From positions 26,042,001 through 26,106,000 of the forward strand of contig CM119372.1 of the NCBI GenBank assembly GCA_051294905.1: DNA of 64,000 bases, read 5' to 3'. Within the stretch, counting starts at the first letter, position 1, and every line of letters begins with the position of its first letter. The position numbers and the translations under genes were made by a program. The notes beneath the pieces are model-generated. The model did no database searches, was not told the DNA's origin, and saw nothing but the letters and a program-made list of their open reading frames with translations. Of the stretch, positions 14,673 through 39,177 are shown piece by piece. The DNA comes from Botryllus schlosseri (Eukaryota).

Positions 14673-16113
14673 ATCTAAAGTAAAAATTTTATTCACGCTT
14701 CGCGCAATATGTTGGCACACGATTTCTTGCTTTTAATATTGTTACTTACCCTCTCCTGAAAATGAAAAAAAAGCCTAATGTACCAGATTGAGTCAAGGTA
14801 TATTCGCAATTACGAGAGAAACTGTCGTCCAACATGCGGCCTTGCGTTTTCGCTCGTAGAAAGGCCGTCGACGATGAAACAAAGGCACAAAATGATTGAC
14901 GCACGTTGGCCGAAGCTTTCGATATCGATATGTCCAGGCGCCGAATAGCCCTGTCCTTGCAAACGCAGCCCAGCGATTTACAGCAGACCCGGAATATACT
15001 CAAGTAACAATATTATTGACCTATTAACTTTGGAAAATTTTCGCGATTGGCGCGGCTAGTGGCCCGCGCAACGTTTGGTCTATTGCAGGGGCGGGCAACA
15101 TACGGCCCGCGAAGGGATTTTGTCCGGCCCGCGGACAGTTTTCCGTCTTACATGATAATGTGGCCCGTGGCCCCTATCTGCCGATATTCCCCACTACTTG
15201 CTAACTAGGTCAAATTTTAGTGACTGTATGTTATTATGTACGCATGTGCGCAGCGTGCGAGAGTAGAGCTTACGAGTAAGTTGGTCGAAGCGAGAACTTG
15301 CATTATCGGCATTTACGATGTACTCAACCTTAATGTCGTTTGTGGTAATCATGCTGTATGCAGACTGCAATGGTCATTTACACCAGGCTGATATTTCTTA
15401 TTTTTGATTCCGTAACCGCCGACTTGTAGCACGGCACACTTCCAGGGTTTTGCAAGACACCGCTTATGCCAGGGTCGCCAACTTAAAACGGGTCACGGGC
15501 CACTTTTCAAAATTCGTAGAGGACGCGGGTCGCATGAATTCAATATCGAAATTAATTAGGCCACACATTTGAACAACGATGCTATTTATCGTCACCTACT
15601 CAACCCTAATGAATTGATATCAAGGTAAATTTAGGGCAACGGGCTTACGAACGCATTGAAATCTTAAATAGGGATTGCACCGCGAGTTGATTGATCAGAG
15701 AGCAGACATGGCGGTGCCTGTATGCAGTGGTCGGGAATCTTTTTGTCCGAAGAGCCATATTGGCCTTATTTCTTTCCATTTTACCTCCCAAAGACCCATA
15801 CATGTCGATCAGATATTACGTCACAATTGAAATTTTCTGACGTCATGGTAGTATTAATTCGAACTCGTCTACTTATCATGCTGGTTGCCTTACTTGAGCA
15901 TGCGAAACTTGAGTTACGAGAACGTAGGTTCGCCGTGATGCTCCTTTTAAATGCGAGAACCTATGATCACATGCGTATGCGACTATGCGTTGGTGGAGTC
16001 AAACATGGTCACTACGGCAATCTATAAATAGGCCTACCCAATCTAAGCTGTTAACGAAGATTTTGAAACCTTCAATTAGTATTCAATTAAATAGTATATT
16101 CATATTGAAATGA

Positions 16114-16157
16114 ACCCGAATATTTTCGGCTGACACTCGTCAGGGGTAATCGTCAGC
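16114..16157 (-). ncRNA. Minimal type I hammerhead ribozyme (mirror copy)
   Basis: Reverse complement of 16530-16573. Confidence 0.75.
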
Positions 16158-16529
16158 AACTAGTAGAGAATTGGAAAGAACATTGTATATCAACAATCGT
16201 ATCACAAAATATGACGTCACCAGCAAGAAATTTCGAATGAGAGAGCGTTCAATGTACTATTTTTAGGTGATACACGAACTCCTTTTGTTGACAGAGTTTT
16301 GGTTGGTGTATTTTGATAAAAGTTGATTCCAAGGCACACAAATGGAATTGTGCCTTGGAATCAACTTTTATCAAAATACACCAACCAAAACTCTGTCAAC
16401 AAAAGGAGTTCGTGTATCACCTAAAAATAGTACATTGAACGCTCTCTCATTCGAAATTTCTTGCTGGTGACGTCATATTTTGTGATACGATTGTTGATAT
16501 ACAATGTTCTTTCCAATTCTCTACTAGTT

Positions 16530-16573
16530 GCTGACGATTACCCCTGACGAGTGTCAGCCGAAAATATTCGGGT
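16530..16573 (+). ncRNA. Minimal type I hammerhead ribozyme
   Basis: GCTGAC-gatt-ACCC-CTGACGA-G-tGTCAGC-C-GAAA-ATAT-TC-GGGT: intact core, stem I ACCC/GGGT, palindromic stem III AATATT, 5' flank GCTGAC pairs with loop II GTCAGC; predicted cut after C16569. Confidence 0.8.
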
Positions 16574-19548
16574 TCATTTCAATATGAATATACTATTTAA
16601 TTGTATATTGAAGTTCTGTACCTCCACGAAGCTCTTCAATTAGTATTGGTATTTTCTATTGATGTTCATTGTTCATGAATGACTAGATTTGGAACATTTT
16701 TCTCCCAAATTCCCACAATTTGCATTTTATTGATCGGAAATAAAGCGCGAAACGAGAGGTAAAGGCACAGACGGGCCAAGCCTCACCATTGATAACGCAC
16801 GCAATTCATCGTAAATAGCTTAGAATTTATTATAACTGATATTAATCCAATGTAACTGTGGCACTGATTCCGAATATTCAAACACTGATCGACTTCTCAA
16901 TTCTCAAAGTATTTAGCCGTAACATATAACGTTGCGCTACACGCCTTCATTGCCAACCAAGAAAGTAGATAGCTATGGCGTTGTTTGTAAATTGAGTTTG
17001 TAATTGGGAATGTCACGTCCACGGCAGTTCATTTCGCGCCGTAGATCAGGAAGACAAAGTGTATTTTAAAACTGTGTTGTCATATTGGTGTCGCCATGTC
17101 TGCTGTTCTCTTTGATCAACCACTGTAACGAGCAATCCAAGATTTTGAGTCGGGTAGGCTACATTGAATTCGCGGGTGATATTGGTCGACAGCGCGACAG
17201 TGACGTAAATTTGAGGATTTTGAAAGGAGTTCGAGCCCCTTAACCAGAGGACGACGTTGCCTTTACCTCTCGAAGACATGTTTATACTGCCACGGGAATA
17301 ATTATTTTGATCGTGATGAAAATTTACTAACAAGTCGCTGCAACATTGACCAATTCAGTACAAAAATATTTGGCAATGAGCCATATCTTATCACCAAAAG
17401 AGCCATGTTTGGCTCGCGAGCCATAGGTTCCCGACCACTGCTGTATGGCAATGCTATATTCTCAAATACACATTGTCTTCCTCATTATCGGCGAGAAATA
17501 ACTTTGACGTGACATTGCTGTCGTTAAAATACATTCATTGAATACGATTTATTCCTTGTACATGTGATTGGCGAATAATGATGTATATCGATACAGCAAT
17601 CCGGCCCGCCAAGTACTGTATTTTCCTATATCCGGCCCGCCGACTGGAGAAGTTGCCCGCCCCTGGTCTATTGCATGAGGCCCTTGGGCGGAAAAGGTTG
17701 GCCACCCCAGGCCTAGGCCTAGGCCATGCAGAAAGTCAACAAATTGTGCTTAGTCAACTACCCAATTGTTCACATCAACGAAATTGATATACTGGGAATG
17801 CATCGATATTTAATGTATATAAACTATCAGTCGCGCGGAATCTATCTACGGAATCTATATGCGTATTGGATCATAAAAACCGAATCCGTCCGATTGCGCG
17901 TCACCATGTCTGCTATTCTTTTTGATCAATCAACGTATGGTACAATCCAAGATTTAGCTGCGCGTGATACCGGGTACATCAAATTCGTGAGAGATATTCG
18001 TCACTGGCGCGAAAGCAACTTGAATTTGAGGATTTGGAAAAGGGGTTCCGAGCCCCTAACCCTGGATACGCCAGTGTCTTGACCAATCAAAGACATGCTA
18101 ATGCTGCCACGAAAATAATTAATGTGGCCGTTAAGAAAATTTACCAACATGATGCTGCAATATTGATAAACTAACTGCAAAATTGGAAATTTGTCAAAGA
18201 GCCATGTCTTATACCCAAAAGAGTCATATATGGCTCGCAAGCCATAGGTTCCCGACCAATGTGTACAATAATATAGTACTTCTGTGAAATGTAGGGTCAT
18301 AATTAACAATATGACGTCGTGGAGTGACGTCATAGGCTTGTGTTCACGTTCTCGTTCACACGAAACAGAACGTTTTAGGGGTTTGCACCATCCCTAATAT
18401 TGACCCCTATTACATTTGATTCCTTCGCATATGATACGTACAAAATTCACATGGCAAAGGATATATATATATATGTAAACAGATACTATATAGCAACTTT
18501 ATTCAGTGCCAGACTCGATAAGAATTCTCAAAAAGATACATATCATCAGTGCTAGCGATCCATTGCTCTATTTCAAGCGAGGATAATTAACTATTATATA
18601 TTTGCACTCGCACAAAATAATCGACTACAATAAAAGAAACGGAAAACAAACGGTCGAAAGTGCAACATATATATAGAGATTTGACGCCCATCGTACGTAA
18701 TTTCTCTATGGATGTGTTACGTCAACGGCGCAGGAACTATTTTGTTCTTGGCACATATAATTGGTCGCTGATATCGGAAATTTTGTAGCACAGTGCTACC
18801 ATTCGTGTTTCTGCATTCGATGTTAATATCAAACATAACGAGCATTGTACTGTGTCCTTCGTTGATATATTCCTTACAGTCTTCAACTTGAGAAGCGTAG
18901 CCATGAGCTATTCTACTTGAGATTGGTGTGTTTGCTGAAGACCGGCATACAATCACATCTACAAAGGGGTTTTTGGACATAAGCAGCTTGTTATACCACT
19001 GTAAATAGTAGCTGAGTAAACATAGATCACATGCACAGCACGTGACCTATTAAGAAGTCTGTCAGATTGCAATATCCAATGCTAACCATCTTTAACTGGT
19101 GTAGTTCACAGATAGCCAAAGCAGTGAAAGGTTGCTAATTGTTGCTTGTAGTAAGAACGGAGCACCAATATTTTTGAAAATAGTCAGCGGAGTAGTCAGA
19201 GGCACAATGCGAATCTTATGTAATGCGGATTGACCGTTTCCCTGGGTATTTTGCGATAAATTGAATTAAAAGTTTAGGGAAACAAAAAGCACAACATGTT
19301 GACTGATACAAAAATGAAAGTCACGACATCTTTCTGTCGGCGCGCATCAGATGGCCGGAAAAGTTTGTGCCGTTCCCTGCATTTCGGCCCGCTTGTCGTA
19401 TTATCTTCTAACTCTCTTGCGACTCCTCTAGTGATTTAATATACTGTTCGTACTCTTCCATGCTCCTCTGCCACCGTTGGACTTGCTCTTCGTATTTTCT
19501 AAGAAATTAAGTAATCATGAGTTGCCCAACAGACCAATATCAGACCAC

Positions 19549-21734
19549 CAGAGGGGGTCAGTAACGAAGTACTTTTACTTTTTCGAAGTACTCAAGTAGT
19601 TTTCCTCTATTTCTGGTACTTACTCAAGTATATCCTTTTTACCTACTTCTACTTCTACTTCGTAATATTTTCTGAACTACTTACTTACTTTTCGCTATTA
19701 TCAGTTTGTCAAGTAGAAGTAGTTTAATCCTCCAATAAGAAAGGTAGCCTAAGAAATTTCGGGGCCGTTTTCACGTAGTACCAACATTTAATTTTCATAA
19801 AAGTCACGTAATACCCAGAATTTACGTTGCGCTTCGCGCACAGTACATATGGAGTAACAAATATGTTCTAACTAAAGCATCACTGAATATAATTTAGAAA
19901 CCGGGTTGCGTGGTTCCGTTCACATCGCATTGTCGCCTATATCAAATATTTCATCACAGTAAGTATGGCCCCCCATAACGTTTGAAACTACCGATTAGCA
20001 ATCAAGCAATTTCCTATTATACCTAGCAGCCCATGACGTGTCCTAATCTGGAAAAGCGGACTTTGAATTTTTTGACGTTAAACCTGTTTTAGCAGACCAC
20101 CGTTGAAACTTTCTGGACAAGAGACATGAAATATATTTTCCGCATTTTAGAAATAGTATTTGTATTTTTCTTTCAATTACGAGTATTATACGTTGAGCTC
20201 TAATTATAGTTTCAGTTCATTTGTCTGGAGAACATACATGTTGAAGTATAAAAGAAAGTGTAGTAGTGCCATACATTTTTCGAAAATAAAGCTATACACT
20301 ATATGGCAGTGGTCGGGAACTTTTTTGCCCGAAGAGCCGCCACATTGGCCCTATTTCTTCCGTCTCAACTCTCAAAGAGCCATACATTTTATTCAACTAT
20401 TACGTCACAATTGAAAATTCGTGACGTCATGGTAGCACTAATTCAAACTCGCTACATGGGATTCCTCGCGTGCGCCATATTTTCTCTGTAAAAACTGGTA
20501 TTTACTGTTCGAAAATAAAACTCGAAACGAGAGGTAAGGCACGGACCGGCCAAGCCTCACCATTGATAACGCAATTCATCGTAAGTCGCTTAGAATTTAT
20601 TATAACTGATTAATCGAATGTGACTATCACACTGATTGCGAAAATCTAAATACTTATCGACTTCTCAATTCTCACAGTATTCGGCGGTAACATAACGTTG
20701 CGCTACACGCATACATTTTATCGTCGTTACTACACAGAGCTATACTTACAAATCAGCTATGGCGTTGTTTGTAATTCGAGTTTGTAATTGTGAATGTAAC
20801 ATCCACAACAGTTCATTTCGCGCCGTATATAAAGAAGACAATGTCTGTTTGAAAACTGCGTTTCGAAATGGGCGTCGCAACGTCTGCTATGCTCTTCGAT
20901 TAATCAACGTATGTCGCACAATTCAAGATTTCGAGTCGGGTACATAGAATTCGTCAGTGATATTGGCCGCCGGCGTGACATCAACTTAAATTTGATGATA
21001 TTGAAAAGAGAGGGGCCGAGCCCCTAAACCTGAAGACGGCATTGTCTTAACCTCTCAAAGACATGTTTATACTGCCACGAGAATAATTATTCTGGCCGTG
21101 ATGAAAATTTACCAACAAGTCGCTGCAATATTAATCAATTCAGTACAATAATGAATATTTGGCAAAGAGCCATATCTTATACCCAAAAGAGCCATATATG
21201 GCTCGCGAGCCATAGGTTCCCGACCACTGCTATGTGGCATTTTTACGATCTGCCACATTTCTCATTAACGTATACTAATTGCGCAAATTGTTAAAGCCGT
21301 ATCCGACACAACTTCTCCGTATTGCTCTTCGACTGAAGTAGGGGCCTTAGAATATGGGGGAGGGCACCATGCCATGATATTATCTAAAACGGGGTGTTCG
21401 AGTAAACAAAGGATAAGTATCGCATTTCCACATCAATACTATCATTTACATCCCATGATGTGGACGACTGCTTATGCATCAATATGAATCAAGCCCTCTA
21501 CACCTTGCGCATAGCCCCATTTGCAGCTTCTGACTGTCCATGCGACTGAATTACGATCGTTTTCACAACTACTTACTTACTTGAGTAGATTTAAAGTCAG
21601 TCAATTCTACTTCTACTTCAAGCAGTTTTAGGTTGCTTATGAAAGAAGTAGTTCTACTCGTACTTGAGTAGATTTTTTCGTCGCTACTTCTACTTGTACT
21701 TGAGTAGATTTCTTGACTACTTTGACCCCCTCTG
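19549..21734. mobile_element. hAT MITE family M2 (AGTAGA/TACTT repeats)
   Basis: CAGAGGGGGTC / GACCCCCTCTG; TSD CAGACCAC on both sides. Confidence 0.9.
20307..21229. mobile_element. hAT MITE nested in M2
   Basis: CAGTGGTCGGGAAC / GTTCCCGACCACTG; TSD CTATATGG/CTATGTGG; the empty site is visible near 38112 in the other M2 copy. Confidence 0.85.
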
Positions 21735-23707
21735 CAGACCACAGACAAAACCACAAACATCAAAAATGAACCAGCGCGGACGTGTTAAATAATGATGAGT
21801 TGCAATGAGCAAAAGTCTGGGATGCTATTTTTTCTGTAGACGGGTGTTAGTTGAAAGAGAAATCTCAGTTCACAGTAATATCTACAAAAATGTATACGCA
21901 AATGTGGCTCATATTGAACACAATATCCTCACGTGACCACCACAGTTCACGCGTGTCCAACAACACCGATGGTCTCAATATGATATCCTTAACAACTCTG
22001 GTAAACACTACTGTACATGAACTGAACATCCTAGTACAATGTTCTTTAGTAAATTAGAGAGATAAATATAGATTACTAACCTCCGTGGATATGTAATCGG
22101 TTGCTAAATACGAACTAGCCATTATGCTGCACACATAACCGACGAGCGAGCCGTTTCTCGCACACAGTGCGAGATCATCATAAAAGACTTCCTGATTTCA
22201 AAAAACTAATTAATTCCCAATTCCCACTTTTAATAAACTTTCAATTTATATATTCCGTATGTGATGTGGTGGTAAGTTTGCAGTATTTTCTATTACATGT
22301 TGTATTCTGTGACCGCATGGTGACATGTGAAATTTGAAGATTTACGAGACGGTGTGCGACATGCAAGTCCTGAGCTCAACTTATTTATGATAGCAAAGTT
22401 TTAAAGCACTTTATATCATATCAGCTACACAAACGCTAGTATTTCTAATATCTATATAGGGTTGAGAAAAATCGCAACATAGGGCATCCCCCAGATTCGG
22501 CATTTGTTTCCGACACGTACTACTAATACGTTCACGCAATTGTCAGAAAATTCAACGAGGTTCAACTTTATCAAGGTTTAGGAAGGCATATAGTGTAACT
22601 GAAAACTTAGAATCCATAAACGTCTGCTCTCCCTAATATGGAGTATACCCTATTATCAGAAGTATTGTTATCGATTTACATAAACAACCCGTGACCCATT
22701 TGAAAATGGCATGATACAAAGTTTTAAAAGTTTTACGGTATATATAGTCGATATGCATAAGAGCAGGTACATCCATATCCGAACAATAAACCACACGATA
22801 GTAACTTAAATATTTGGAGAATTAAAATTGACTCCAAATCGGAAAATCTGAGATGACGCGACTTGTCTAATTTTTTGCACTTGCGTGACTCGAATGTAGT
22901 GACTTGATTCAAGCAGGTTCATATAGATGGTGAATTTTTAGTGACTTAGATTCGTTTTATTGGGCGTACATATACATGACTGTCATGAATTCATAAAATT
23001 GTTCTAACAACCGCCCGGAGCTATATTTAAGGATGCATATCTACGGCTTACTTCATTTTTTCATTCCAGTGATCGTACGTCGCCTTATTTTGCTTGTAGC
23101 AGATATCATTTTCGTCAAACGTTATCTCCATATCTGAAAATAGATTGAATGATTGAGACCAATGTTATTGTGTCCATATATAGAATCCACGCCCAAGACA
23201 AGGCGAGAAAAAGATTTTTAAAACTCATTTTCATGGAAACGCCAATATATTTGCGCTTCATTATCATATATTATGACTCATGCTGAGCATAAGTTCATTT
23301 ATAATAGATTTCTGCTGGAAATCGCAACTATCTTCAGCTAGAGAGACAATCTGACGTTTCATCTTCGTCAGCCAAACAGTCATCGATTCAGTAAGGGTTT
23401 TATCATTTCCAATTGTCATAAATCGCTACATAAATCGGACTTCAAACATAGCCTCCAATTTGTGCACACTATACTGAAAAAATGTGTACGTTTGCACAAT
23501 GATGAAATCAAATGGCTCCAGCCTACAGCCACGAGTCGTGGCGCAGAACCATTAGATGGCGGATACGATTTAAAAAGTTAGTCATCGGGAGTTAGACCTT
23601 ACGTCGCACATCGCGCAGAAGAGTCGCAACAACATTTGGCAGCCATCGCGACCATATTAATGAAGTGATGAAGCTGTATACTATTCATATATGTGCTACC
23701 TATACGG

Positions 23708-25249
23708 CAAGAGCGTGTAACTTTCGCAGTCCGCGGGCCGGATACAGGAAAATTAAGTACTTGGCGGGCCGGATTGCTGAATCGATACAATATTTGCCCA
23801 TTTATCCACATAATACAAGGAATAAATCGTATTTAATGAACGTCTTTTAACGACAGCAATGTCACATCACAGCCATTTCTCGCTGATAATGACGAAGACA
23901 ATGTGGATTTGAGAATAGCGTTGTCATACAGGCGCCACCATGTCTGGTTCTCTGTGATCAATCAACACACGGTGCAATCCTTAATTAAGATTTCAAGACG
24001 TTCGATAAATCCCGTACCCCAAATTTACAAAGATATCAATTCACTAGGGTTGAGTAGGTGACGAGATAGCGTCGCGTTCAACTGTGTGTCCTAATTAATC
24101 TCGATATTGAATTCATGCGGCCTGCGTCCTATACGAAATTTGAATAGTGGCCCGCGACCCATTTTGAGTTGGCAACCACTGGCATAAGCGGTGCCTTAGA
24201 AAAGCCTAGAAGTGTGCCGTGCTACATGTCGGCAGGCAGTTACGGAATCAAAAATAAGAAATATCAGCCTGGTGTAAATGACCATTGCAGTCGACAAACA
24301 CCATGATCACTAGGGCTCTTCAGAAATGACTTTTTTCTCAAATCATACTGGCTACTTGATAAAATTGTTAGATTACCTATTTTAAGCCTACACACAAAAT
24401 CTGGTTCAATTCCAGCCAGTAACCGCTTTGCTACAGGAGAAGAAAGTTTCTATTTATTATATAAAAATAAATAATAAAAATTTGAAAATTTTTTGTTCAC
24501 CCCATGAAAGTGTTAGGCTGTCTATAGAAACGATGCTCACCAAATTTGGTTCAATTCCAACCAGTGGAAGCGGAGTTATTGCCGTCGAAAAATTTGGATT
24601 TGAATAAAATAGTATTTACGGTGACCGATTCTTTGTTTATTTATTATAGTTGTGCTCACCGTAAATACTATTTTATTCAAATCCAAATTTTTCGACGGCA
24701 ATAACTCCGCTTTCACTGATTGGAATTGAACCAAATTTGGTGAGCATCGTTTCTATAGACAGCCTAACACTTTCATGGGGTGAACAGAAAATTAAAAAAA
24801 AAATTATTATTCATTTTTATATAATAAATAGAAACTTACTTCCCCCGTAGCAGCAAAGCGGTTACTGGCTGGAATTGAACCAAATTTTGTGTGTAGGCTT
24901 AAATTAGGTAACCTAACAATTTTATCAAGTAGCCAGTACGATTTGAGAAAAAAGTCATTTTTGAAGAGCCCTAATGATCACCACAAACGACATTCGGGTT
25001 AAGTACATCGTAAATGCCGATAATATAAGTCTTCTGTCTTCGACGAACTTACGCGTAATCTCCACTCTCGCACGCTGCGCAGTGCGCATACATGTATATA
25101 ATAACATACAGTCACTAAAATTGGACCTAGTAAGCAAGTAGTAGGGAATCTCGTCGGACATGGGCCGCGGGCCACTTTATGATGTAAGACGAAAAACAGT
25201 CCGCGGGCCGGACAAAATCTCTTCGCGGGCCGTATGTTGCCCGCCCCTG
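23708..25249. mobile_element. Composite hAT MITE (inverted sister of 15086-17665)
   Basis: TSD CTATACGG at 23700-23707 and 25250-25257; right end GTTGCCCGCCCCTG. Confidence 0.8.
24311..24973. mobile_element. Fold-back (fully palindromic) MITE
   Basis: ~315-bp imperfect arms around a loop at 24625-24655; termini TAGGGCTCTTCA / TGAAGAGCCCTA; TSD ATGATCAC. Confidence 0.85.
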
Positions 25250-27055
25250 CTATACGGTATGAAGCGAGGAGAGAAATTTTCGATCGTATTGGATTTGATT
25301 ATCCATTATCTGTCACATCCAACGCAGCCTTATCTAACCGTTCTGGCATTGTCCGATATATCTAATCAGGAAAGGATTCCTTGTTTATTGCACTAAGTGG
25401 ATGCAGATATTAATCTTGTGAAAATCTGAGTCATCTAATCTGTGACTGGCTGGCTTAACGTTGACATAGAAACATGTTTGATCTCTCACGGTATTATCTC
25501 TTCAAATGTGGAATATTTCTGCTGCTCACTTCAGTACCGAAATGTACAGTCTCTTTGGTTCTCAAATAAGGGTCTGGTCCAGTGAAACTTTTGTATGCTT
25601 CTTCAGATCGGAATACAGTCAGCGGTTTAATATTACCATAGATTCTAGCACATCCCTGTCTCACAGCATAATTCATTTACGCATTCGACAATAATTATTG
25701 AAAGCATCAGTGATCTGTAAATGACATTTTTTACAGTCCAAATGGGCCTTCAAATGATGATTACAATCCTATTGTGCGATGCGTCGTATTATGGTGTAGT
25801 GTATATATTTGGTATATCCGTGAGCGTCGTCATAACTATGCCGGCAAAATGCATTATCGCGAATATCTCCCAATATCGTATACAAAGCATGAACCACAAC
25901 TATTTGATACCATTTCATGTCGCGCTCTCAGGAGGTAATAGTGTTTGTGATAGCTACTATGACTCATTCAAAGACCGTTGCAGGATGTTCATGTGCGGAA
26001 TTGTGGCTTGCGCGCCTTTTTCCATATGATTATGATATAATATGAACACATGTTTCCAGCAACGCAGATGCGACACGGGAATCTTCATGCTCGATACTGA
26101 TTGATAGACGAAGACTTGAAAACTTATGAGCCCTATAAATATCAAGCAATTGCCACAGATTTTTTAAACAATTTTTTCTAAATGCATTAAAAAAAACACA
26201 CTATTTAAAACATGTTTTAGGCAAAGTGCTTTAATGCAGCATTTGTTTTAAATGCAACCCCATAGTTACGATCCAGTCAGTTAATGTCAGTTATGATGTT
26301 TTGAAAAGTATTGAATAATGAATGCCATAATGACATCGTGTTATTCGGAGGTAGTTACCTCCTGTCAAGACATGAATGATCCACCACTGAGGGTAGGGAT
26401 GTATACGTAATATATCAGGATATCAATGACAAATCATTTGCCCCATTTAGCCGCCAACGTCATGTTCTTCGTTCAGTACTATTTACTGGTAATTTAAATA
26501 GCGTAACCAGTAAATAACCTCCTAACCAGGGAAGTATATCGATTATGGTCACAGATTACCAGATAAAACCAATATACTGAACAGTTGAACGACAACCACA
26601 TAAGACCGCGCAGGAATTCCCTGCGTCTACTTCAGGAGTGGGAACCATTTAAGCATTTGAGTATTGCGGGTCACATGAATTACACAAAACAATGTGCGGG
26701 CTGCATGATTTTTTCATTTTCAAATTCCGTATAAAAGAACCTAAACATTTCAGTGATGTTATATCGGCCGGGAAGAACTCTCATATGAGGATCGCTTAAT
26801 GATTCCTTCTATGGCGTATGCTATGACAAGATAGCGTAGTGGTATGATTCACAGCTGCAACACCAATGGGTTATATGTTATATGTTTTCGATCCCTTATC
26901 GAAGATTCTTATTTCTCGCCTCTCTTTGTATATGTCCAGTTGGAATAATTATATTTCATGGATAGCTTTTAAATAACAAAATAAGTAACGAAGTATGAAT
27001 TATGTTTATTGCGATAATACCTTTATGATCGATTTGAAACTAACGTCATGTAGGC

Positions 27056-27848
27056 TAGTAGTTCTCAAACTGTGATACGCGTGCCACCAGTGGTGTCGCG
27101 AGAGCTTTTCAGGTGGTACGTGAGCACATCGGCGATTTTTAATTGTATTAAGTATACAATTTGCTGTCCTTTGCAGAAAACCAATATAAATACACACGAA
27201 GCACAATTACTACAGTTGTGCAGCAATTTCACGATGGTATCGTTGCGCCACACCGTATTCACATTGAAGAGAACAGAGCATCAGGTGATACTGGCTATGT
27301 GCTAACATAGTAATGCAGTAAGGAAGATATTTTTTCCAGCTATCTGGTTAGCATATTAATGCATCAATACATCAAGGTCGATAAATTTCAACTATGTCGA
27401 AACGAAAGTGTAATCTAGAATACAAGTATGGATTCATCGCAACCGAATACGGATGAGAATGTTTGCTGCTGTGTGTCTAGTTAAGTTCAGTTCAATTCAG
27501 TTTATTATGCGTGGTTTGTAAGAAAACTGTTTTAATGCGACCACCTTGCGGCATGCGGTCATTAAATGGCCGAGATCGCCCAATTGAGCCTGGGCAATGG
27601 ACAATGGACATATTGTGCAATGTGCTATGAATAATGTGTTAGGCCTACCCCGCATATACAATCTTGTATACAGGAAACAATTGTATCTAGCAAATTGAAT
27701 CCGCTTTTCATACTATGCATTGGTGTGATGGTGCAGTAACAACGCCGATTATTGGTACATGTGACTAAAATAAGGCATTTTGGGATCTAGGTGGTAGGCG
27801 GTGCAGTAGACGTGGTACGTGACCGGAAAAAAAGCTTGAGAAACACTG
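27056..27848. mobile_element. hAT MITE
   Basis: TAGTAGTTCTCAA / TTGAGAAACACTG; TSD ATGTAGGC/ATGTATGC. Confidence 0.7.
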
Positions 27849-28807
27849 ATGTATGCTACGCGGTAATGATGTTTTACCGCAAAGATAATAAAAAAATCAG
27901 ACAGTAATAGGTCATAAATGCAGCAAATGTTTCAATATTAATTATCAATTTAAACGAGGTAAAATCGAGTTTTAAATCACCACCATAAAGTTTAATTTAT
28001 TTCGGGGAAAAATTCGAGTTGAATATGTGGACCCGGGTCTAACCGTATGGTATTGATTATTCCAACCCACAGGGAAAGCACGAAGCATATGATTATTTCA
28101 CTTTATTTTATATAAATATAGTGAACTCAATATGATGGTCTGAACGAATCACTAGTGTCACTTTTAAAGCCTGTCCCCACGTAGTATGCTGTAACTCGGT
28201 ATATCCTGACCTTAGCAGACATATACTAAACCTGTTTAGGCCTTGCATGCCATACATGGGGTGTAAAAATCACTAAAGTGGGACGAACGTGTTTTGGATC
28301 TTTGCTGAGGCATAGTAAATATTATCTCATAAAGTCTAAACAGGCAATGAGCTCTATGCTACGTCACATTGCTGCATATTTCTGTTGTTAAGATGCATGT
28401 GACATTTCATTATTATAAAATTCAGATTTCGATGTATCTGTCGGACCGACAGGAAAGTTTGCGTGGGCAGCCGCTTGAGAACCACTGCCTTAGATGGTAA
28501 AAATATGAAATTGAGGCGCAGTTAGAATTTGGTTTTGTTCATGCTGTCCGTGCCCATTCCCCATGTATTTTAACGTGCGTGTCGCGGCGCAGCTGTGGAC
28601 CAGGCCCATTCCAATTTCGCACTTACGACAGAGGGATGGCTATTATAACAACGTTATGTCCCTTGTCATGAGAGACATATCTATCTGTTCACACTCACTA
28701 TGCGGCCACATCGCTATCCGTCTTGGTTTGAAACTAGAGTATACACAGCTACGTTCATACTAGAATTGTCAGCTAACACAATTACAATTGAAACCACACA
28801 AGCTAAC

Positions 28808-29143
28808 CTTCGCTTTGAGGCGTGCCCATTGTTTCCTCCGCGGGCTCGTCCACTGGTTTTGCAGCCAATGATGCCGTTGGTTGTGTTGTTGTGGTCGTCG
28901 TTACTGTCGTCTCTATTAATTCAGACGTTTTCGTTGCGAACGGTGGACTGATGCTTAACTGGACAGCACTACAATCTACGCGGTCATTCCCAATATCAGT
29001 AGCTGTTCCGCTGATCTCAACACCGGTTATCCTGTCGACACAGAAGCATTGTCCTCTGGAGAACTCGCACCGCTCTATGTTGTAATTGCCGTCCACATCA
29101 CATAAAGAGGCTATATCGGGTCCTGCTTCGTCTATACATCTAC
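28808..29143 (-). CDS. Internal exon: thyroglobulin type-1 domain + Thr-rich stalk
   Basis: CDVDGNYNIERC...QCFCVDRITGVEISGT...DC is the TY-domain motif; TTTTTT tract; ttacag acceptor and gttagc donor; 336 nt, phase 1-1. Confidence 0.85.
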
Positions 29144-30181
29144 CTGTAACAAGCATAAACATATTTCCCACGCAGTGCTATGTCGAAATGCGCATACAGT
29201 GCCTCGCACTTAGATTAGAAGGATTATCGCGTGCGACGATGTCATTGGTGACATAGTATACCAACATCTTAGGTACGCTATATCGTTAGGTACAGGGCCT
29301 CTAGTTCAGGGGTCGCCTACTCAAAACGGGACTCGCGTCGTTTTTCAAATTTCGTAGAGGCCACGGGTCGCAAGATTGCGACATCGAGACAGAATAAACA
29401 GCAACAACCACGGACTTCCGACTTCCGATACCTAAGTGTTGGAGGTTTACCTAGGCTCCTCCTCGCCACCTCATCCGCGTCAGCGGTGTCTTACAAAAGC
29501 CTAGAGGTGGGCCGTGCTATAAGTCGGCAGTTACGGAAAATGAGAAGAATATCGGCCTGGTGAATATGACCATAGTAGTCGACAAACACCATGAATACCC
29601 AATAACAAACAAACAACCACGGTTTTAAAACTTTACCTCGGTACAGTGCTGTGTTCTCTCTCCCTATCATGGGCTAGGGCCCTACGGGCATAGTTCCCAT
29701 AGTTACCTTATTTTTTAGGCGTCTCGGTTTTGGCAGTGTCTGGGCTATTTCACGTCAACGCATTTTGCCCATTCATAACATTAAACTAAATGCTGTTGCC
29801 ATCGGCAAAGCCGTTTCAGCAAGTGAGGACTAATGGTATCGGGCACAGAAGAATAGCTTATTTTGAAACAACAAAAATATTTCGAAGCTAAAATAAATTT
29901 CATCATTTGGTGATTCAGCATTGACTTCAGGTCAACAAACTTTTCTTTTTCACAAGAGGGTACCGAGTCCCAATGTACAATTAATTTTAACATAAAAGTT
30001 AGATAACCGGGAATGGAGTTAGTCTACCAAGTATATATCATTGACTTTGTCTCTTGAAAGTTTCCCGTACTACGATATCCGCTGTTTGTGGAATAATGCT
30101 TGATCGTGATCGTGGGTACGTAAGGTTATTATAGTACTGTAGGCCAGGGCTCTCCAACCGGGTGTATCGTACACCCTAGGG

Positions 30182-30994
30182 CAGGGGTGGCCAACTTGCG
30201 GCCGTGGAAGGGAATTTGTGCGGCCGTGAACACGTAATTCAATTCGCATGTGTTGGCGACCGTCGACATGAAAATTAAATTAACGAATTGACTCCAGAAT
30301 ATTTGAGAGATTTTAAATAACATTGCAATTTTTTTCGCCCGCTGCGCGCGATTCAAAGTGACTTCATTTTCGATTTCAATGTAGTAGCGCCCTTTCTAAT
30401 CTCAGCCCCACAGTACAGATGTGAACAGCAGAGGAAATTGATACGCCTCATATAGAAATGCCAACTTGGAATCGTGTGGTACTCATGGAAGAAATTTGTT
30501 TCTGGTGCGTTTGGGCGATTCCAATATCGTTCCACTATATACTGACAATCTTGATGGGTGGTCAAGAAATAACAACATGCAACAAAGTGACTAACAACAA
30601 TTGGCCCACCGGAACATCCATCATAATTTATAACGTGCCCTACATTTTTGAAAACACCCCCTCCATCAACTCGGTGAGCTGATCACATGGGCTGAGGAAC
30701 GATAAATGCTTGCTAGGAATATGTGGAACTAGTATTACTTCTGACGAAATACATTGGTCAATCAGAAAAATTTTCGCGCTTCGCGTGACCATAACGAGTC
30801 CCATACATACTATTCAAATCATGACCACTGGCAATTTCGGTGCGTATAGTAAGCCGATCTGAATAAGTAAATTAGTCCGGAGCTCACCCGAAATAGCAAT
30901 GGACAGTTTAACATGGGTATATTTGGCGCCCAGTTAGTTCATTACGACTATGCCGTGGATGCGGCCGTGAATAGCAAAAGGTTGGCCACCCCTT
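30182..30994. mobile_element. hAT MITE nested in 30145-32839
   Basis: CAGGGGTGGCCAAC / GTTGGCCACCCCTT; TSD CCCTAGGG. Confidence 0.85.
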
Positions 30995-31538
30995 CCCTAG
31001 GGTGTACCAAAATGAAGTGTATTGGGGTGTACCAGATCCGTATTAAATTGGAGCAAATATTAGCTGTTACAATAAATAGGCAAGTTTATGCTGCAAAACA
31101 TGTTGACCAGATGTGTAGTGTGTAGTTTAGTGTACATAAGTGATGTGTAGTGTAGATAAGTGCAGGGGTGTAGCCACTAGCCAGGGATCTCAGGGGTTGG
31201 ATTTGAGAATCACTGTGATATAGATGGTGGTCCGGTAACCTCGAACCCAGATTAGTATTTAGCATTTCAAATAAGTTACGGCCTTGATCATCCTTATTTT
31301 AACAGTCCCGAGGTGGCCAACCTGCAGATGTACGCTCGCATGCAGCGGTAAAACCATAATTATGCAGCTCTCTACACATGCAATTAATTCAGCGTGTGTT
31401 GGCGGCCGTCAACATGCGATTTGAAGTATCGGTAACGAATTGGTTTTAAAATCTTTGAATGATTTTAATTAAACTAGAATATTTTATTCACGCATGTCGC
31501 GATTAAGGGTGACTTGGATCTTTCATTTTTAATATAAT

Positions 31539-32038
31539 TACGTGGGAAGAACGTCAAAGCGTCTGCAGGAACGCATAAACCAGCATAACCCCAGATTTAT
31601 CAGAACACGTGTATCACGCTCGGTGAAAAGCTCACCCTTAACTCATTCGCTTAAACTTGATGCTGACCGATCAAAGGCCATTAATTCTGCCATCGGCAAA
31701 CATCTGCTAGATAATCCGATTTGTGCGACTAATTATCGAGACGACATATTTCGCGTCGTTGGGAGGGGCCGTTCACACTTACATTTGTGTGCCTTGGAGT
31801 CGACATTTATCAAATTACACAAACCCAAACTCTGTCGACAAAAGGAGTTCGTGTACCACTTAAAGATAGTACATTGAACGCTCTCTCATTCGAGATTTCA
31901 TGCTGGTGACGTCATATTTTGTGATAAGATTGTTGATATACAATGTTCTTTCCAATTCTCTACTAGTTGCTGACGATTACCCCTGACGAGTGTCAGCCGA
32001 AATATTCGGGTTCATTTCAATATGAATATACTATTCAA
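31539..32038 (+). mobile_element. 5'-truncated Penelope-like retroelement (GIY-YIG endonuclease fragment + 3' region)
   Basis: YVGRTSKRLQERINQH...SAIGKHLLDNPIC...LESTFIKLHKPKLCRQKE (31539-31877); 11-bp TSD TTTAATATAAT at 31528-31538 and 32039-32049. Confidence 0.85.
31969..32011 (+). ncRNA. Minimal hammerhead ribozyme (stem III one A shorter)
   Basis: Same as 16530-16573 except GAAA-TAT-TC. Confidence 0.65.
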
Positions 32039-32971
32039 TTTAATATAATAGTGTAATCTGAGCCCAGGGTGCGAATGGAAACCGCAGAGAAAAATGATGC
32101 ACCTCATAAAGAAATCCCAAGTCTCAATCGTGTGCGTCTCACGAATTAAGTTTTTTCTGGTACGTTTGAGCGATTCCATTACATATTTCTACTATGCCCA
32201 CAATCCTGATGGGAGGTAAAAAATGACATGCAAGAAAGTGATTAAAAAATAGGAAGATGCATCATCATTAATTTTGTGACCAAAATATTCGAATACACCC
32301 CTTCATAAGCTCTGCATGTTAATCTGGTAGCGTGGACTACGAATGGATAAATATTTAACAGTAAGATACGAAACAACCAATATTATCGACTACATTAATT
32401 TTCCGGGCGGAAACTTTTTCGCGCTCTGCGTGACTATAGAATAGGAATCCACATGACTTTTCCTAGCATAGATATTCACGGTTTTAGTGAATATATAGTA
32501 AGCCTGCATGAGTACTCTGCTGTTACAGTTAAAATAAACTTTATACGCAATGTATTAGTGATGGTACAGAACATCACATGGGCCCCCCGCCGTGCTAAAT
32601 TCCGAGTAGCCAATTTAACACGAGTATAATATGATGTCCAGATGTGCCATGACGACTCCAAGCCGGAATGCGGTCGCATTCTATATATGTAATCGAATTA
32701 CGGCCGTGAGTAGCAAAAATGTCAAACACCACTGGATCAAGTTTGGTATACGAAATCAGTGTCTTATGTGGTCAGCGGTGCACGAGTTTCGAGTAAACGG
32801 TAAAAGGGTATACCAAGACGAAAAATGTTGAAGAGCACTGCTGTAGGCCACTCAAATTTAACTTTCGGATGTTGTCATCCACGCCACGCAATTCACATGT
32901 AATGATGCAACCATAACAGATAGTTTGTGACCGGATTGTATCCCCACGAAGTGATCACTGCATTTACTTAC

Positions 32972-32995
32972 TCAGGCAGGTAGATACAGTGGCAC
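32972..32995 (-). CDS. 24-nt micro-exon of the TY-domain gene (C-ATVSTCL-S)
   Basis: ttgcag acceptor, gtaagt donor, phase 1-1; keeps frame between the flanking exons. Confidence 0.65.
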   Translation of the reverse strand: MPLYLPA

Positions 32996-33066
32996 CTGCA
33001 AGTCCACAGAAAGACGTACCATAAACTTTTCACATCACATTTCCCGACTTTCGGAAATATACTTAC

Positions 33067-33130
33067 ATTCTGATAGCGTAATTCCCCGTAGCCACAGTAC
33101 AATAAGTGGATAGATATACCTCTTCTGCAT
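33067..33130 (-). CDS. First coding exon of the TY-domain gene: signal peptide MQKRYIYPLIVLWLRGITLSE
   Basis: ATG, basic then hydrophobic N-terminus, gtaagt donor at phase 1; upstream ttttacag acceptor at 33195. Confidence 0.65.
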
Positions 33131-33603
33131 GATCAGAGTAGGTAGGTAATAAATAACTACGCCGAGATGACAGCTCGACTTTTAAAACAAAGATCTGTAA
33201 AACATGCAACGATCACTCCAGTGTAGGAATGTTTCTCAAGAATAGAATAATGAAATGTGCAAATCAGTAAAGTAACAATCACCCGCGATCCAGTTTGAAA
33301 ATGTTTTATAGCGCGCGCTCAATAAGATTCCGAAAATATAACAGATAAGCGTCAAAAAAATAGCAAATCATCCTAGCAACGATAACTTTGCTCCTAATCG
33401 TGTGCTGGTTAATACTCATTTCACTTGCAACCATCAACGGAGATAGCTATAGAAGTGATTCGTAATTCGCGATAGCTATCACAATCTATATCGGATTGGG
33501 GGCGTATACGAATGGGTACGAGTTCGACTAACACCACAGTGCTTTAATCCGCCTTTTCTGCATGGCCATGAAATGAAACGAGCAATTGATTTTCCGGTTA
33601 AAC

Positions 33604-34799
33604 CAGTGGTTCCCAACCTTTTTGAAATAATCGCCCCGTTATCAAGATCGACACAAATTTTCGCCTCCCAATATTTACGGATTCAAGAAAAAGGACATAT
33701 ATACGGTAATTGATTAAAACTAGGTCATTATTCCGAACAGGTGCTCTTGAAACCGCGTCCATTTTCCGTTTAGTTATGACTGGGGCGATTTTTTTATACC
33801 TAAAAAGGGGAAGACTTTGACCTAAAAATCCCAATTTTGAGATTTTTTACTCTAAAAACTTGATTTTTACCAAATTCTGACCTCATGTATGTAAATTAGG
33901 TGTTTTCCCACATAATGTTAGAATTGTACTACTTATCTTCATTTATGGTTGGAACTGTCTGTCCTTATTAGGTAGTTCGGCCTGAAAAAAAAATATTTGA
34001 ATTAGAAACTGATAAATTCTTACTGAAAAATATTTGTTTTACCGAAATCTGGACCTGTGAAGAATTCCAGTAGTTACATCACGCATTATGGTGGAAATAG
34101 TTATAATTTGTTGTAGTACAACAACGAAAGACGCTTTCCTACATTCTTAAGTAGAAAATGTATGTCCCGACTAAGTAGCTTGCCAAGAATGGAGAAAGAA
34201 CGTTGAACATTCGCAGTTGTTGGCTGGCAACATTGAATTTGTGCGTACACTGCTGGTGACACACCGTGTTGCTTCCTGACAATGTTGTCTATGCATCACA
34301 ATTTTTCATCATGCACTTCTTGATATAAGAACCAGTGCCGCGCAGTTTTACATCAGTTAGTATATTGCGGTACGTAGAGCATAACATCATGTCAACCTAT
34401 TTGTTTCATTTGGCCGTTCATGATTCACAATGAGCAGATAATGGACCGTCTAAAACGGTAGGCCGATAAAGTAGGCTAAAAGCTGTGAAATGTTGTATGA
34501 AAAGCTCATCGACAGTGCAAACATTTACGATACAAATGAAATGAAGGTGGCAAAAAAAAAGGATTTTGTAAACAATTTCGACAATTTTTTGACTTAACGC
34601 TACAATTTTGACATGTCAAAAGCAATCGCCATAGTTATGACTTTTTTAGTCAACTTACGTGTCATATACAGGTGTCGGGCCGTGTTAATTAAATATATCT
34701 CACAGAACGTTCTAACATTTTCGTCCCCATCACCCCTAGTCGCCCATTTGGCATTGTCACCCCCTTGGTTCTCAAAATCGCCCACGTTGGGAACCACTG
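33604..34799. mobile_element. hAT MITE
   Basis: CAGTGGTTCCCAAC / GTTGGGAACCACTG; TSD GGTTAAAC/GGTTTAAC. Confidence 0.8.
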
Positions 34800-36334
34800 G
34801 GTTTAACGAAAAAGCCCTTTTTCATTATCCGCTTAATTCGACCAATGGTGTGCGGGGCCAAAGCGTCCGTACTAAGCACTGTTTTTCCTGTATATATGCG
34901 CATTCAAATACAACTAGCTAGGACTATAATTTCCCGACGCGCAATTCGCCGTCGAAAGACCACTGTTGAGATTAGTGCTTTGTCGGCTTCTTGTAAGCCA
35001 GAGCAGATCCTGGGTTTGGATTGTTATATACATAATACTTGAACACAAATCCTGTCTACAACTGCAGTGGTGGAGATTATCCCGGAGGGCGAATACATGA
35101 GATTGTCGCTGTTGCGTGATGTCAGAGCGGAAACGATGCAAACATTTTCTGATAAATTTATATATCATGCCGGATGAACATTTTTCAGTGACGTGGCTGG
35201 CCTGACTCAATATATCCGATGACACAGGTATATGGGGGCTTCTTATTAAGATCGATTTCTAATTAATTTCAAATAAAATCGACAGAATGAGGGATAGTTC
35301 AATAAGCCGCTGTAACCATACACCATACACCGCTTATCTGGCAAAAAATATGCCAAGCAAGAATCATCATGTACAATGTATGTTGTACATCTCTATAGTC
35401 TGCATATGCGATAGTTTCCGTATGGAACCGCACAGTATAACCGATATATTCAATGCAATTTCAATATTGGCATATACAACTCCTCCACGCGCCTCATATG
35501 TCCAATTGTCCACAATTTTCTTGTGTTCTTTTATTCCTTAACGGCATAGACAAAATTGGTCAAATTCGGACTGTTGAGACGCATTCTTGTAATTCACACA
35601 ATAGGCCTATCTATGCATCCATGGAAAGCCATTTACGAAATCAGTCATACAAAGGTCCTTTATTTGTGAACGGACCGGAACTGCAACTTGAGTTGATCAA
35701 CGCGCTCTTTATTGCGTGCTTTCAATCGGAAAGCAGTCCTGTTGTAGAGGTGTTACTGATAAATATCCATCACAGGCATCTGCCCTAGACACATATGCTA
35801 ATGATGACCGATCCGGTTGTGCTAATATTTGTACAACTGCCTTCACTTGCTACTGCCCACCTCGAATAGTCCCAATCGCAGCTGCAAAACTGCCCTCGCG
35901 ATGCATGAATTACAATGCCTTCCTCAACATAAACGCCTTGAGCTAAACATTTCATTAGCGCAGCAGCAATGATTAAAGTCGTAATTCTGAACCTTGTAGG
36001 ATTCGCCCACGCCCAACTACACGTCTTCCGCGGGAAGTGATAGAGTGAGCGGGGAATGTAAACGTAGATGTACGAGCCGCACAAACTATAGCCTCCGGCG
36101 ATTTTTACGCACACCGTTGCTAAGGAATTACGCGTCATATTAAAGTGAACATACGTCATGTTTGCAGAATCGCAACACTCAGTCCTCACGAAATACGATT
36201 TTCAGGTTGGTTACATTTGAGCTGATTTCATACTAATATCGGTACAGAGGGAATCTCCGGCCGCTATAGGCTTGTAGTTCCACGTCAAAATTTCATCTAT
36301 AACGCGCTGTTTGGTCATTATTGCAGCAAACAAT

Positions 36335-36724
36335 ACATTCATATTGCCAAATTTATTCCACTCGAAGCTTTGCGACTGGCTCTCTTCAGGAGCGGACGCC
36401 AGTAAATGAGGTTAACCAAGTTGTTCGAAATATAGAAATAATTTTGTCGTTGTGACGTAATAATGGCAAGTACACAGAGTCTCGAACGGCAGTAAACAAC
36501 GCACGGTTACGTTACAACACACACATAAATAATCAGCTGTAAAACAGCCGAATGACGAAACAACACTAATGGAAGATTCCCAGCGTGTATTCCTTTTGGC
36601 GACAGAGAATCGGCTTTTGCAGCTTTATAATGGTTGATTCAAGGACCTTTAAATGAAAAAGAGAACGACCACGAGCAATTATGGAAAACTGATTGTTATT
36701 GCAAAGCTTTGCATACTCTGGGTG
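36335..36724 (-). mobile_element. 3' fragment of a second Penelope-like family
   Basis: 36724-36566 translates to HPEYAKLCNNNQFSIIARGRSLFHLKVLESTIIKLQKPILCRQKEYTLGIFH*, homologous to the C-terminus at 31539-31877 (too short for the ORF track); followed by a hammerhead and AATAAA. Confidence 0.8.
36358..36403 (-). ncRNA. Minimal type I hammerhead ribozyme, GCAA core variant
   Basis: Minus strand: ACTGGC-gt-CCGCTC-CTGAAGA-G-aGCCAGT-C-GCAA-AGCT-TC-GAGTGG. Confidence 0.7.
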
Positions 36725-38605
36725 CACTCTGGGCAGAACTACATGATGTTACTTATTCTTAATCACGCATGGTAACGCATGGTCATTGCACTCATTACGA
36801 CTGTCATATATTCCTTACTAAAAGCACCACAAATTGGTAGTACTATAAAACGTAGATTTTATCGCTCCAGCGGTATGGCACAATGTCACTGTCAGACTAT
36901 AAATCACGCATGCGTGAGTAATTATGCCACTGGTAAAGCCCCGTAAGCCAAAACATTGCCTTGTTCACATCATACTTCCGATTCTATGAACAAACTCGAT
37001 CGACAATGATACGAGATAGGGTTGCATTTAAAATAAATAGTATTTTAAAGCAGCACTATTCGACCTTTTTCGGAATGGTACGCCCTTTTAACGTTTACGC
37101 AAATCCTGTGCACCCCAGTTCACCAGATACACCGAATCCTTACTAATCCTAATCGGATTCAAGATTAATAAGGCTGGTATAGGAAATGCTAATGCTAAAT
37201 ACCTATCATCGACCAAAATCCCGGACCACGATCTAACACAATGGTTCGCAATCGGGGGACAACTATGCATTTTCAGGGGTGCCGCGAGAGAGAGAGATCA
37301 GATTTATTTTCGCCTGGACCGTCGAAATACTTTGGCAATGGAGATACGATACAACCTTTAAGCAGAGGTGGTCAGTAACGAAGTACTTCTACTTTTTCGA
37401 AGTACTCAAGTAGTTTTCCTCTATTTCTGGTACTTACTCAAGTAGATCTTTTTTCGCTACTTCTACTTCGTAATGTTTTGTGAACTACTTACTTACTTTT
37501 CGCTATTTTCAGTTTGTCAAGTAGAAGTAGTTTAATCCCCCTATAAGAAATATAGCCGAAGGAATTTTTCGGCTGTTTTCACGTAGTACCAACATTTAAT
37601 TTCCATAAAAGTTATCTAATACCCAGAATTTTCGTTGCGCTTTGCGCACAGTAGAGATGGAGTAGGAACTATGTTTAACCAAAGATATCGCTGAATATAA
37701 TTTAGATACCGTGTTGCGTGGTTCCGTTCACACCGCATTGCCACCTATACCAAATATTTCATCACAGTAAGTATGGCTCCCATAACGTTCGAAACTACCG
37801 TTTCGCAATCTAGCGAATACCTATTATACCTAGCAGCCCATGACGTGTCCTAATCTGGAAACGTGGACTTTGACTTTTTTTAAAAAACTTTAGACCTGTT
37901 TTAGCAGACCACCGTTCAAACTTTCTGAACAAAAGACATGAAATATATTTTCTGCTTTTTAGAAGTAGTATTTGCATTTTTCTTTCAATTACGAGTATTA
38001 TACGTGGAGTTCTAATTATAGTTTTAGTTTTTTTGTCTGTAGAACATGCATGTTGAAGTATAAGAGCAAGTGTAGTAATGCCTTTATGTTTTTCGAAAAT
38101 AAAGCAATACACTATATGACATTTTTACGGTCTGCCATCTTTTAATTAACGTATACTAATCGTGCACAGTGTTAAAGCCTTATTCGACACAACTTCTCCG
38201 TATTGCTCTTCGACTGAACTAGGGGCCTCACAATATGGGGGAGGGCGCCATGCCATGATATTCTCTAGATGGGGTGTTCGAGTAAACAAAGGATTAGTAT
38301 CGCATTTCGATATCAATACTATCATTTACATCCCATGATGAGGACGACTGCTTATTCTGTCAAAAATTGACACCTCTTGGGATGCATCAATATGAATCGA
38401 GCTCTCTGCACCTTCCACATAGCTCCATTTGCAGCTTTTGACAGTTCATGCGAACGATTTACTTGAGTAGATTTAAAGTCAGTCAATTCTACTTCTACTT
38501 CAAGTAGTTTTAGAATTCTTATGCAAGAAGTACTTCTACTCGTACTTGAATAGATTTTTTTCGTCGCTACTTCTACTTCTACTTGAGCAGCTTTCTTGAC
38601 TACTT

Positions 38606-39157
38606 TAACGAAATATATTGGTATAATGCCATCTTAATAATAGTCAATAAGGAGTTGGTAGAACTTACGTAATTCCCTGGACTGAGACCTGATAAGACAT
38701 GTGTGAGTCGTTTATTTGTCGTGTGAATGATAGATAAGAAGTATAAATCGTACGACGTTGGGTTCATTTCGAGATATACGTGTGTATGTATACATTCGTG
38801 GTGATTATTAGCTGGTTCGGAAGTTGATATACATTCATGATTATTAGCTGGTTCGGAAGTCGATAGACATTCATAAGTACTTCGCCAATTGCGAGAAATA
38901 TATATTGCATTTTGAACTGTACGTGATATTCAATAAAGTTACAAGTCGGGGAGACGGAAACAAAATATATTCGTCAGTGTGATCCATCGAATACGTGTGC
39001 CATAGACAGGCTTCGGGGTACGTCAGCCAACAAGGTCGTATACGGCGTAGTTAGGCCGGTCCGTCGAACGAAAGAAGAAACACGCAGCGAATTGTAAACG
39101 CAACCTTCTTGGAGTCAGATATACAATTATACAACTACAAACGTTCGCTCTGCGTTA
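38606..39157 (+). repeat. Putative 5' LTR (TAACG...CGTTA termini)
   Basis: Lies between the insertion junction and the PBS; terminal inverted repeat; AATAAA at 38932; internal ~38-bp tandem duplication at 38789-38874. No second LTR is available to confirm it. Confidence 0.6.
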
Positions 39158-39160
39158 AAG

Positions 39161-39177
39161 TGGTGACCTTCCGACGT
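39161..39177 (+). promoter_or_regulatory. Primer-binding site, tRNA-Trp-like
   Basis: TGGTGACC-TT-CCGACGT versus the complement of the animal tRNA-Trp 3' end, TGGTGACCCCGACGT (recalled, unverified). Confidence 0.65.

Follow-up and report, generated by a model that had tools for sequence, protein, structure and literature searches.

Minimal type I hammerhead ribozymes are found in the pseudo-long terminal repeats (pLTRs) of metazoan Penelope-like elements (PLEs), which encode a reverse transcriptase (RT) and a GIY-YIG endonuclease (Cervera 2014). In a 64,000-nt stretch of the Botryllus schlosseri genome (contig CM119372.1 of assembly GCA_051294905.1; hereafter the window, within which all positions are counted), we found copies of Penelope elements whose hammerhead has a one-pair helix II and a conserved 6-bp pseudoknot between its 5' flank and loop II. 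Judged from its sequence, the motif is real and represents a structural variant of the known Penelope hammerhead that is confined to one clade; it is predicted to cleave.

This motif shares many features with the metazoan PLE hammerheads: type I topology, the location in the pLTR of elements with RT and GIY-YIG domains, a conserved core, the G10.1-C11.1 pair, a palindromic stem III (15.2-16.2 and loop III), thousands of truncated copies, and an occasional U3-A8 core. But helix II of the described motifs is long, with 7–8 bp in Schistosoma mansoni and at least 3 bp in the supplement rows compared, while ours has 1 bp. The described motifs also have an extra unpaired base after A9 (between 9 and 10.1), which ours lacks. 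And passages of a review (PMC6155905) state that PLE hammerheads usually have no tertiary contacts, in contrast to the conserved pseudoknot here.

Both parts of this design are known separately, from pseudoknot-braced microbial hammerheads and from dimer-forming Penelope hammerheads. In the sections compared, the set of Perreault et al. 2011 (PMC3088659) consists of pseudoknotted type I, II, and III hammerheads; as in our motif, the contact between stems I and II is a Watson-Crick pseudoknot, and a 1-bp stem II goes with a 6-bp pseudoknot. However, the 1-bp example tested there is metagenomic and of type II, and the repetitive eukaryotic type I set was excluded from the analysis of pseudoknot versus stem length. 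In the pseudoknot hammerhead of Zhan et al. 2024 (PMC11300833, PDB 8YDC), the place of helix II is taken by a 6-bp pseudoknot helix, formed by a loop that is closed by A9-G12 and G10.1-C11.1; the same is predicted for our motif. But in the parts of that paper compared, this loop pairs with the loop of an additional helix IV, which an AUA4 triplex linker connects to helix I. In our motif, the partner is instead a free 5' strand located 8 nt from the core, neither helix IV nor the AUA4 linker is conserved, and stem III is a palindromic stub. By analogy, our motif would work like a pseudoknot-braced hammerhead; lacking helix IV and the AUA4 linker, it is not a member of the 8YDC type.

The described Penelope hammerheads cleave poorly and are said to be without tertiary contacts, and a clade with a Watson-Crick brace bears on the role of the hammerhead. 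The motif is also a 44-nt system in which brace, dimer gate, and catalytic core could each be separately broken and rescued. Lunse, Weinberg, and Breaker reportedly described, in 2017, Penelope-associated short-stem-III hammerheads with a short palindromic stem III and cleavage as dimers. Their abstract is said to describe pseudoknots that join the 5' flank to loop II as common in earlier hammerheads, and the paper may cover our subtype. We found no pseudoknotted PLE hammerhead in the literature searched, which reached neither Lunse et al. 2017 nor supplement file 1 of Cervera.

Layout, co-variation, and abundance

The type I core (C3 U4 G5 A6 N7 G8 A9 ... G12 A13 A14 A15 ... U16 H17) is present at 16530, 16157, and 31969 and in copies across the genome. 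Stems I, II, and III close beside the core, with the open end at stem I. A preliminary description of this window had laid out the motif at 16530-16573, including a predicted cut after C16569, and every element of it can be read in the sequence (Table 1). The pairings that it gave for a second family, at 36403-36358 (-), are also there: ACTGGC/GCCAGT for the pseudoknot, CCGCTC/GAGTGG for stem I, and the palindrome AAGCTT. The family-2 copy in the window departs from the type I core, with A13 changed to C. As it had noted, both families lie downstream of the stop codon of an endonuclease-type open reading frame (ORF), at distances of 91 nt and 162 nt. Helix II is a single pair (two are possible in some families) with no extra base, the 10.1-11.1 pair is invariably G-C, and A15.1-U16.1 is present. 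Above G10.1-C11.1, the predicted pseudoknot helix would replace helix II.

We examined the pseudoknot in 52 loci that were picked by their core only. (These are the heads of two match lists; a few families dominate, and the loci are not independent.) All six pairs form in 35 of the loci and at least five form in 41, with a fixed spacing of 8 nt. The mean is 5.1 pairs in the true register versus 1.1–3.8 in ten shifted registers. Stem III is palindromic in 51 of the 52 copies.

Co-variation was assessed with 14 hand-picked representatives, including elements from other organisms. Each of the six pseudoknot pairs is changed on both sides among them, and 93.8% of the cells pair, as against 75.2 ± 2.6 after shuffling; none of 500 shuffles reached the observed value. 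With an anchored register, for which 13 representatives were used, 76 of 78 cells pair, and none of 100,000 strand permutations reached that. Stem I (4–8 bp) co-varies as well, at pairs 1, 2, and 4, and the palindrome is changed on both sides (AAUAUU versus AAGCUU). The spacing between the pseudoknot strand and the core is 8 nt, with no A-rich linker, in 13/13 representatives. The preliminary description had compared just two sequences; its claim of Penelope-type hammerheads with a conserved pseudoknot helix holds, with co-variation far beyond those two. We rejected a helix IV around the pseudoknot strand as a shared feature: it is possible on paper in families A and B (4–5 bp, mostly weak pairs) but not in families C, D, or E.

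In family 1, the 5' strand of the pseudoknot together with two more bases (16531-16537) repeats the core heptamer CTGACGA (16544-16550) 13 nt upstream, and loop II can pair with either. We speculate that the brace of family 1 may have originated by a short duplication. The upstream CUGACGA was rejected as an alternative core, as neither stem I nor stem II is found there.

Across the genome, a core pattern that ignores the 5' flank matches 8,407 times, versus 16 for a reversed-pattern control, and the AAGCTT subtype has 1,105 matches versus 0. The exact 44-mer of family 1 has 2,539 copies, and a pseudoknot-plus-core pattern for family 2 has 171 matches. (A first look gave 1,098 candidates for family 1 and 1,203 for family 2, and 40 per family were scored.) Rather than the two families described at first, the genome holds at least six pseudoknot families (A, B, C, D, E, and G), as seen in further pattern searches. 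Family G (L309-L315) is another Penelope family, with a paired U3/A8 variant of the core and the pseudoknot CGTGCC/GGCACG. Stem III of families G and X2 is an 8-nt form with central U-U mismatches. Ordinary minimal hammerheads with a long helix II are not in excess in this genome (282 matches versus 417 for the control). A loose pattern for other types of stem III had 2,953 matches versus 1,505 for its control, and the hits listed are mostly unrelated repeats. Two sets of repeated motifs (L316-L320 and L323-L325), which have no pseudoknot, stem I, or match to an element ORF, were set aside. The Rfam models, and any descriptors that need a multi-pair helix II, would miss about 8,000 motifs in this genome.

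Host elements and their clade

The longer copies encode a reverse transcriptase followed by a GIY-YIG-type domain. Three of the proteins (P0001-P0003) all match RVT_1 above the cut-off, and one of the three has a weak match to GIY-YIG. KPDKG is present in these proteins, there is no CX2-5CxxC linker, and two cysteines lie within the GIY-YIG core. Neptune and Nematis elements carry a cysteine-rich linker between RT and endonuclease, according to passages of PMC8557442. By the criteria given there, rather than by a tree of named reference elements, the lack of this linker points to the Penelope/Poseidon group.

In tandem arrays, the hammerheads are 2,692 nt apart (L061) or 2,778 nt apart (L067). 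The predicted cut lies 14 nt before the AUG in the family-1 array, 19 nt before it in the family-E array (whose ORF has 850 aa), and 21 nt before it in the family-2 copy in the window, for an overall range of 14–21 nt. This location just upstream of the next ORF's start codon was absent from the preliminary description, and it means that the motif follows one ORF and also belongs to the leader of the ORF after it. The Poseidon element PAc of Anolis (Frangione et al. 2024, PMC11167929) is similar in that its hammerhead is at the pLTR-ORF junction, the RNA template is uncut, and two start points of reverse transcription give a tail. But PAc is cut 26 nt inside the ORF instead of before the AUG, and the passages compared mention no pseudoknot. 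There is a precedent for the position in a hammerhead of a fungal virus, whose cut lies 7 nt upstream of a start codon (PMC13725137, in the part consulted).

An opposite-strand partner is present at 11 of 30 family-1 loci. Passages of PMC8557442 describe an inverted, 5'-truncated arrangement with a one-sided tail for Penelope-like elements, and this is matched by the insertion in the window, whose tails measure 34 and 70 nt and whose target duplication is 14 bp long.

We also examined 107 related loci from other collections for relatives. Close relatives from other organisms whose 3' end is on the contig have the pseudoknot layout in 3/3 cases. In a FastTree tree with 46 protein rows (L119 was dropped due to short coverage), the 11 rows with the pseudoknot form one clade with a support of 1.0, and the other 35 rows, more distant relatives that were labelled by hand, have hammerheads with a multi-pair helix II. 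In this sample, the pseudoknot layout is restricted to one protein clade. Another 27 Penelope-like loci (L232-L258) lie inside prokaryote genome bins and are probably contamination from animal hosts.

Viral contigs contained no related Penelope loci. There, 21 of 139 pattern matches passed a filter for the pseudoknot plus stem I; by eye, seven of the 21 are of a long-linker type (16–18 nt), and four have a spacing of 7–11 nt. L461, L446, L356, and L410, from these contigs, are type I with a one-pair stem II, a 5'-flank pseudoknot at 7–11 nt, and a full stem III. Stem III of the viral examples is full and monomeric, whereas ours is a palindromic stub. The AAGCTT pattern had 18 matches in viral contigs, of which two passed a loose filter and neither is convincing.

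Cleavage and alternative explanations

Established here are the layout of the motif, its placement between an ORF stop and the next start codon, and the co-variation of the pseudoknot and stem I. We think it likely that this is the terminal-repeat hammerhead of one Penelope/Poseidon-type clade, in which the conserved 6-bp pseudoknot replaces most of helix II and probably braces the core. The short palindromic stem III probably closes only between two copies. In a tandem transcript, two hammerheads about 2.7–2.8 kb apart would swap strands at the palindrome; each pseudoknot would stack on the single G10.1-C11.1 pair and keep stems I and II parallel; and the predicted cleavage, after C17, would free a unit-length RNA that starts 14–21 nt before the AUG. 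As the inserted copies derive from RNA that runs through the site, cleavage probably happens slowly or late, or is reversed. Each of these steps has a published analogue: fast cleavage by a hammerhead with a 1-bp stem II requires the 6-bp pseudoknot (PMC3088659, passages compared), a crystal structure has a pseudoknot helix in place of helix II (PMC11300833, passages compared), and motifs with a short palindromic stem III cleave as dimers (PMC4209133). We also considered a stronger proposal, in which the hammerhead is fully braced and dimer-gated and would cleave fast without protein, unlike the slow minimal ones. The cut 14–21 nt before the AUG would then sort tandem transcripts, with cut unit RNAs going to translation and uncut or re-ligated RNAs going to reverse transcription. 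This is possible, but we rather doubt it.

Several observations weigh against our proposal. All 18 of the sampled family-1 insertions extend 28–73 nt beyond the cut, so the template RNA was uncut or re-ligated there. This agrees with the anole element, for which passages of PMC11167929 report that uncut RNA is the template and that cleavage needs the element's protein and is dispensable for insertion in vitro. Among 2,525 single-cell RNA reads, there is no pile-up of ends at the cut site and the depth is continuous, and read ends do not pile up at either family's predicted site. This is a weak test, with one raw run that was chosen by its species label and a library type that is poorly suited to capturing cleavage ends. 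(The reads cover the site on both strands, and 62% of them continue into unrelated sequence, as expected for fragments within host transcripts.) Nested folding programs, which have pseudoknots outside their model, favor inactive folds for both monomer and dimer, and the predicted energy of the AAUAUU duplex is just -0.2 kcal/mol. The Rfam hammerhead models have no match at E ≤ 5 in the window or at E ≤ 10 in 111 nt; we infer that they expect longer helices. Two external copies (L152 and L153) have mismatches in the core or the pseudoknot. The representatives were chosen by hand and are mutually related, so the shuffle counts are not probabilities, and the two-sided change at pairs 2, 3, and 6 rests largely on one to three lineages.

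Insertion from uncut RNA, with tails in two classes (28–38 and 60–73 nt past the site), would also fit a fold that serves chiefly as a signal by which the element's protein binds or is positioned, with cleavage that is rare or occurs only when protein is bound. So would the anole hammerhead, which is protein-assisted and not needed for insertion (PMC11167929, passages compared), and the lack of read ends at the site in the ill-suited single-cell library. But the catalytic residues have been retained from family to family, also as the paired U3/A8 variant of family G, which fits selection on an active site, and we consider such a signal unlikely to be the main reason for the fold. Alternatively, the 6-bp pairing might not be a brace at all. 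It could be an off-switch, or a hairpin that prevents misfolding, which forms first during transcription and governs access to the core. Both pairing strands are transcribed ahead of the 3' strand of stem I, the minimum-energy folds of families D and E contain the same hairpin extended over core bases, and the repeated heptamer in the 5' strand of family 1 lets loop II pair with the core itself. However, this extension over the core is impossible in families A, B, and G; stem I co-varies across families with a constant spacing of 8 nt; and the same geometry is activating in the compared part of PMC3088659. An off-switch seems quite unlikely.

The pseudoknot might instead make the monomer active, with stem III being just the A15.1-U16.1 pair closing a four-base loop. 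This would suit the very weak duplex of the family-1 palindrome and the arrangement of the sampled copies: most are solitary or inverted, and none of 30 family-1 loci has a second same-strand copy within 1.5 kb. But the palindrome has been maintained through two-sided change and in nearly all of the core-picked copies (51/52), and long copies do occur in tandem. We consider an active monomer very improbable.

Copies and other features of the window

A descriptor that combines the core with the pseudoknot matches the window at 4 sites, and in 300 dinucleotide shuffles it has 0 matches. The preliminary description had treated all four copies as working, which is not supported: one has a core mutation, one has lost its palindrome, and the fully intact pair (16114/16530) lies inside a perfect 259-bp hairpin. 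Three family-1 sequences are indeed present, but a single insertion, marked by the 14-bp target duplication, accounts for the two at 16114 and 16530; they are its mirror arms and so are not independent. These two have the palindrome AAUAUU; the third, at 31969, does not, because one A of the A run is missing. The arms of the inverted repeat (16080-16338 and 16349-16607) are 259 nt and 100% complementary, and a transcript through the repeat is predicted to form a single long hairpin in which the entire motif is base-paired. Rfam miRNA matches at 16261-16426 (E down to 2.6e-12, below the gathering scores) are artefacts of the inverted insertion, and the remaining Rfam matches are due to chance. 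The GIY-YIG Pfam match in the older fragment (31539..32046) has E = 0.0011, below the cut-off. In the family-2 copy, GCAA replaces the invariant GAAA; of the 36 other family-2 copies in the alignment, 35 carry A at this position (36372) and one carries G, and 4/4 RNA reads that span it have the A form. The copies in the window are mostly damaged or trapped and are probably inert leftovers.

At about 36414-36423 (+), four single-cell reads show the antisense strand of family 2 attached to a putative template-switch adapter. Transcription may start here on the antisense strand, or the reads may be an artefact of strand invasion at a GG site.

Table 1. Hammerhead motifs and the element fragments that carry them, by position in the window.
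Feature	Position	Strand	Basis or remark
Family-1 type I hammerhead, intact	16530..16573	+	Predicted cut after C16569
Pseudoknot 5' strand GCTGAC (family 1)	16530-16535	+	Sequence
Linker GATT (family 1)	16536-16539	+	Sequence
Stem I ACCC/GGGT (family 1)	16540-16543/16570-16573	+	Sequence
Core CTGACGA (family 1)	16544-16550	+	Sequence
G10.1-C11.1 pair (family 1)	16551/16559	+	Sequence
Loop T-GTCAGC, with pseudoknot 3' strand GTCAGC (family 1)	16553-16558	+	Sequence
GAAA (family 1)	16560-16563	+	Sequence
Palindrome AATATT (family 1)	16563-16568	+	Sequence
Identical mirror copy of the family-1 hammerhead	16114..16157	-	Left arm of the same inverted insertion; predicted cut after 16118
5'-truncated family-1 3' end: last endonuclease codons, stop (16436-16438), 3' UTR, hammerhead, 70-nt tail	16349..16642	+	98.6% to the long copy in L061
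Start of the next ORF (the 70-nt tail)	ATG 16584-16586	+	Sequence
Inverted 5'-truncated partner with short 34-nt tail	16080..16352	-	99.3% to L061
14-bp target-site duplication	16070-16083 (left, +), 16634-16647 (right)		Right copy overlaps the tail end
Older family-1 fragment, part of GIY-YIG domain, stop 31875-31877	31539..32046	+	90.6% to L061
Hammerhead missing one A, palindrome gone	31969-32011	+	Sequence
Decayed family-2 fragment, frameshifted ORF end, stop 36568-36566	36319..36776	-	86.8% to L064
Family-2 hammerhead, A13 to C at 36372; next ATG 36342-36340	36403-36358	-	Sequence

Elsewhere in the window, 39782-44122 (+) encodes an LTR-retrotransposon-like gag (DUF7041) and a 1,140-aa pol (RT, RNase H, and integrase). 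The two frames are in the same phase, with one UGA between them that is followed by CUA, a context known from readthrough sites. We found no pair of long terminal repeats (LTRs) around gag-pol in 38800-45500. Exons of a leucine-rich-repeat host gene are at 53280-54419 and 56333-56989 (-). A tRNA-like short repeat, probably a short interspersed nuclear element (SINE), has three copies (68-153, 44640-44725, and 63168-63253). There are also two long inverted-repeat elements (7942-9794 and 24304-24980), and 19549-21726 and 37363-38609 form a diverged direct duplication (87–94%).

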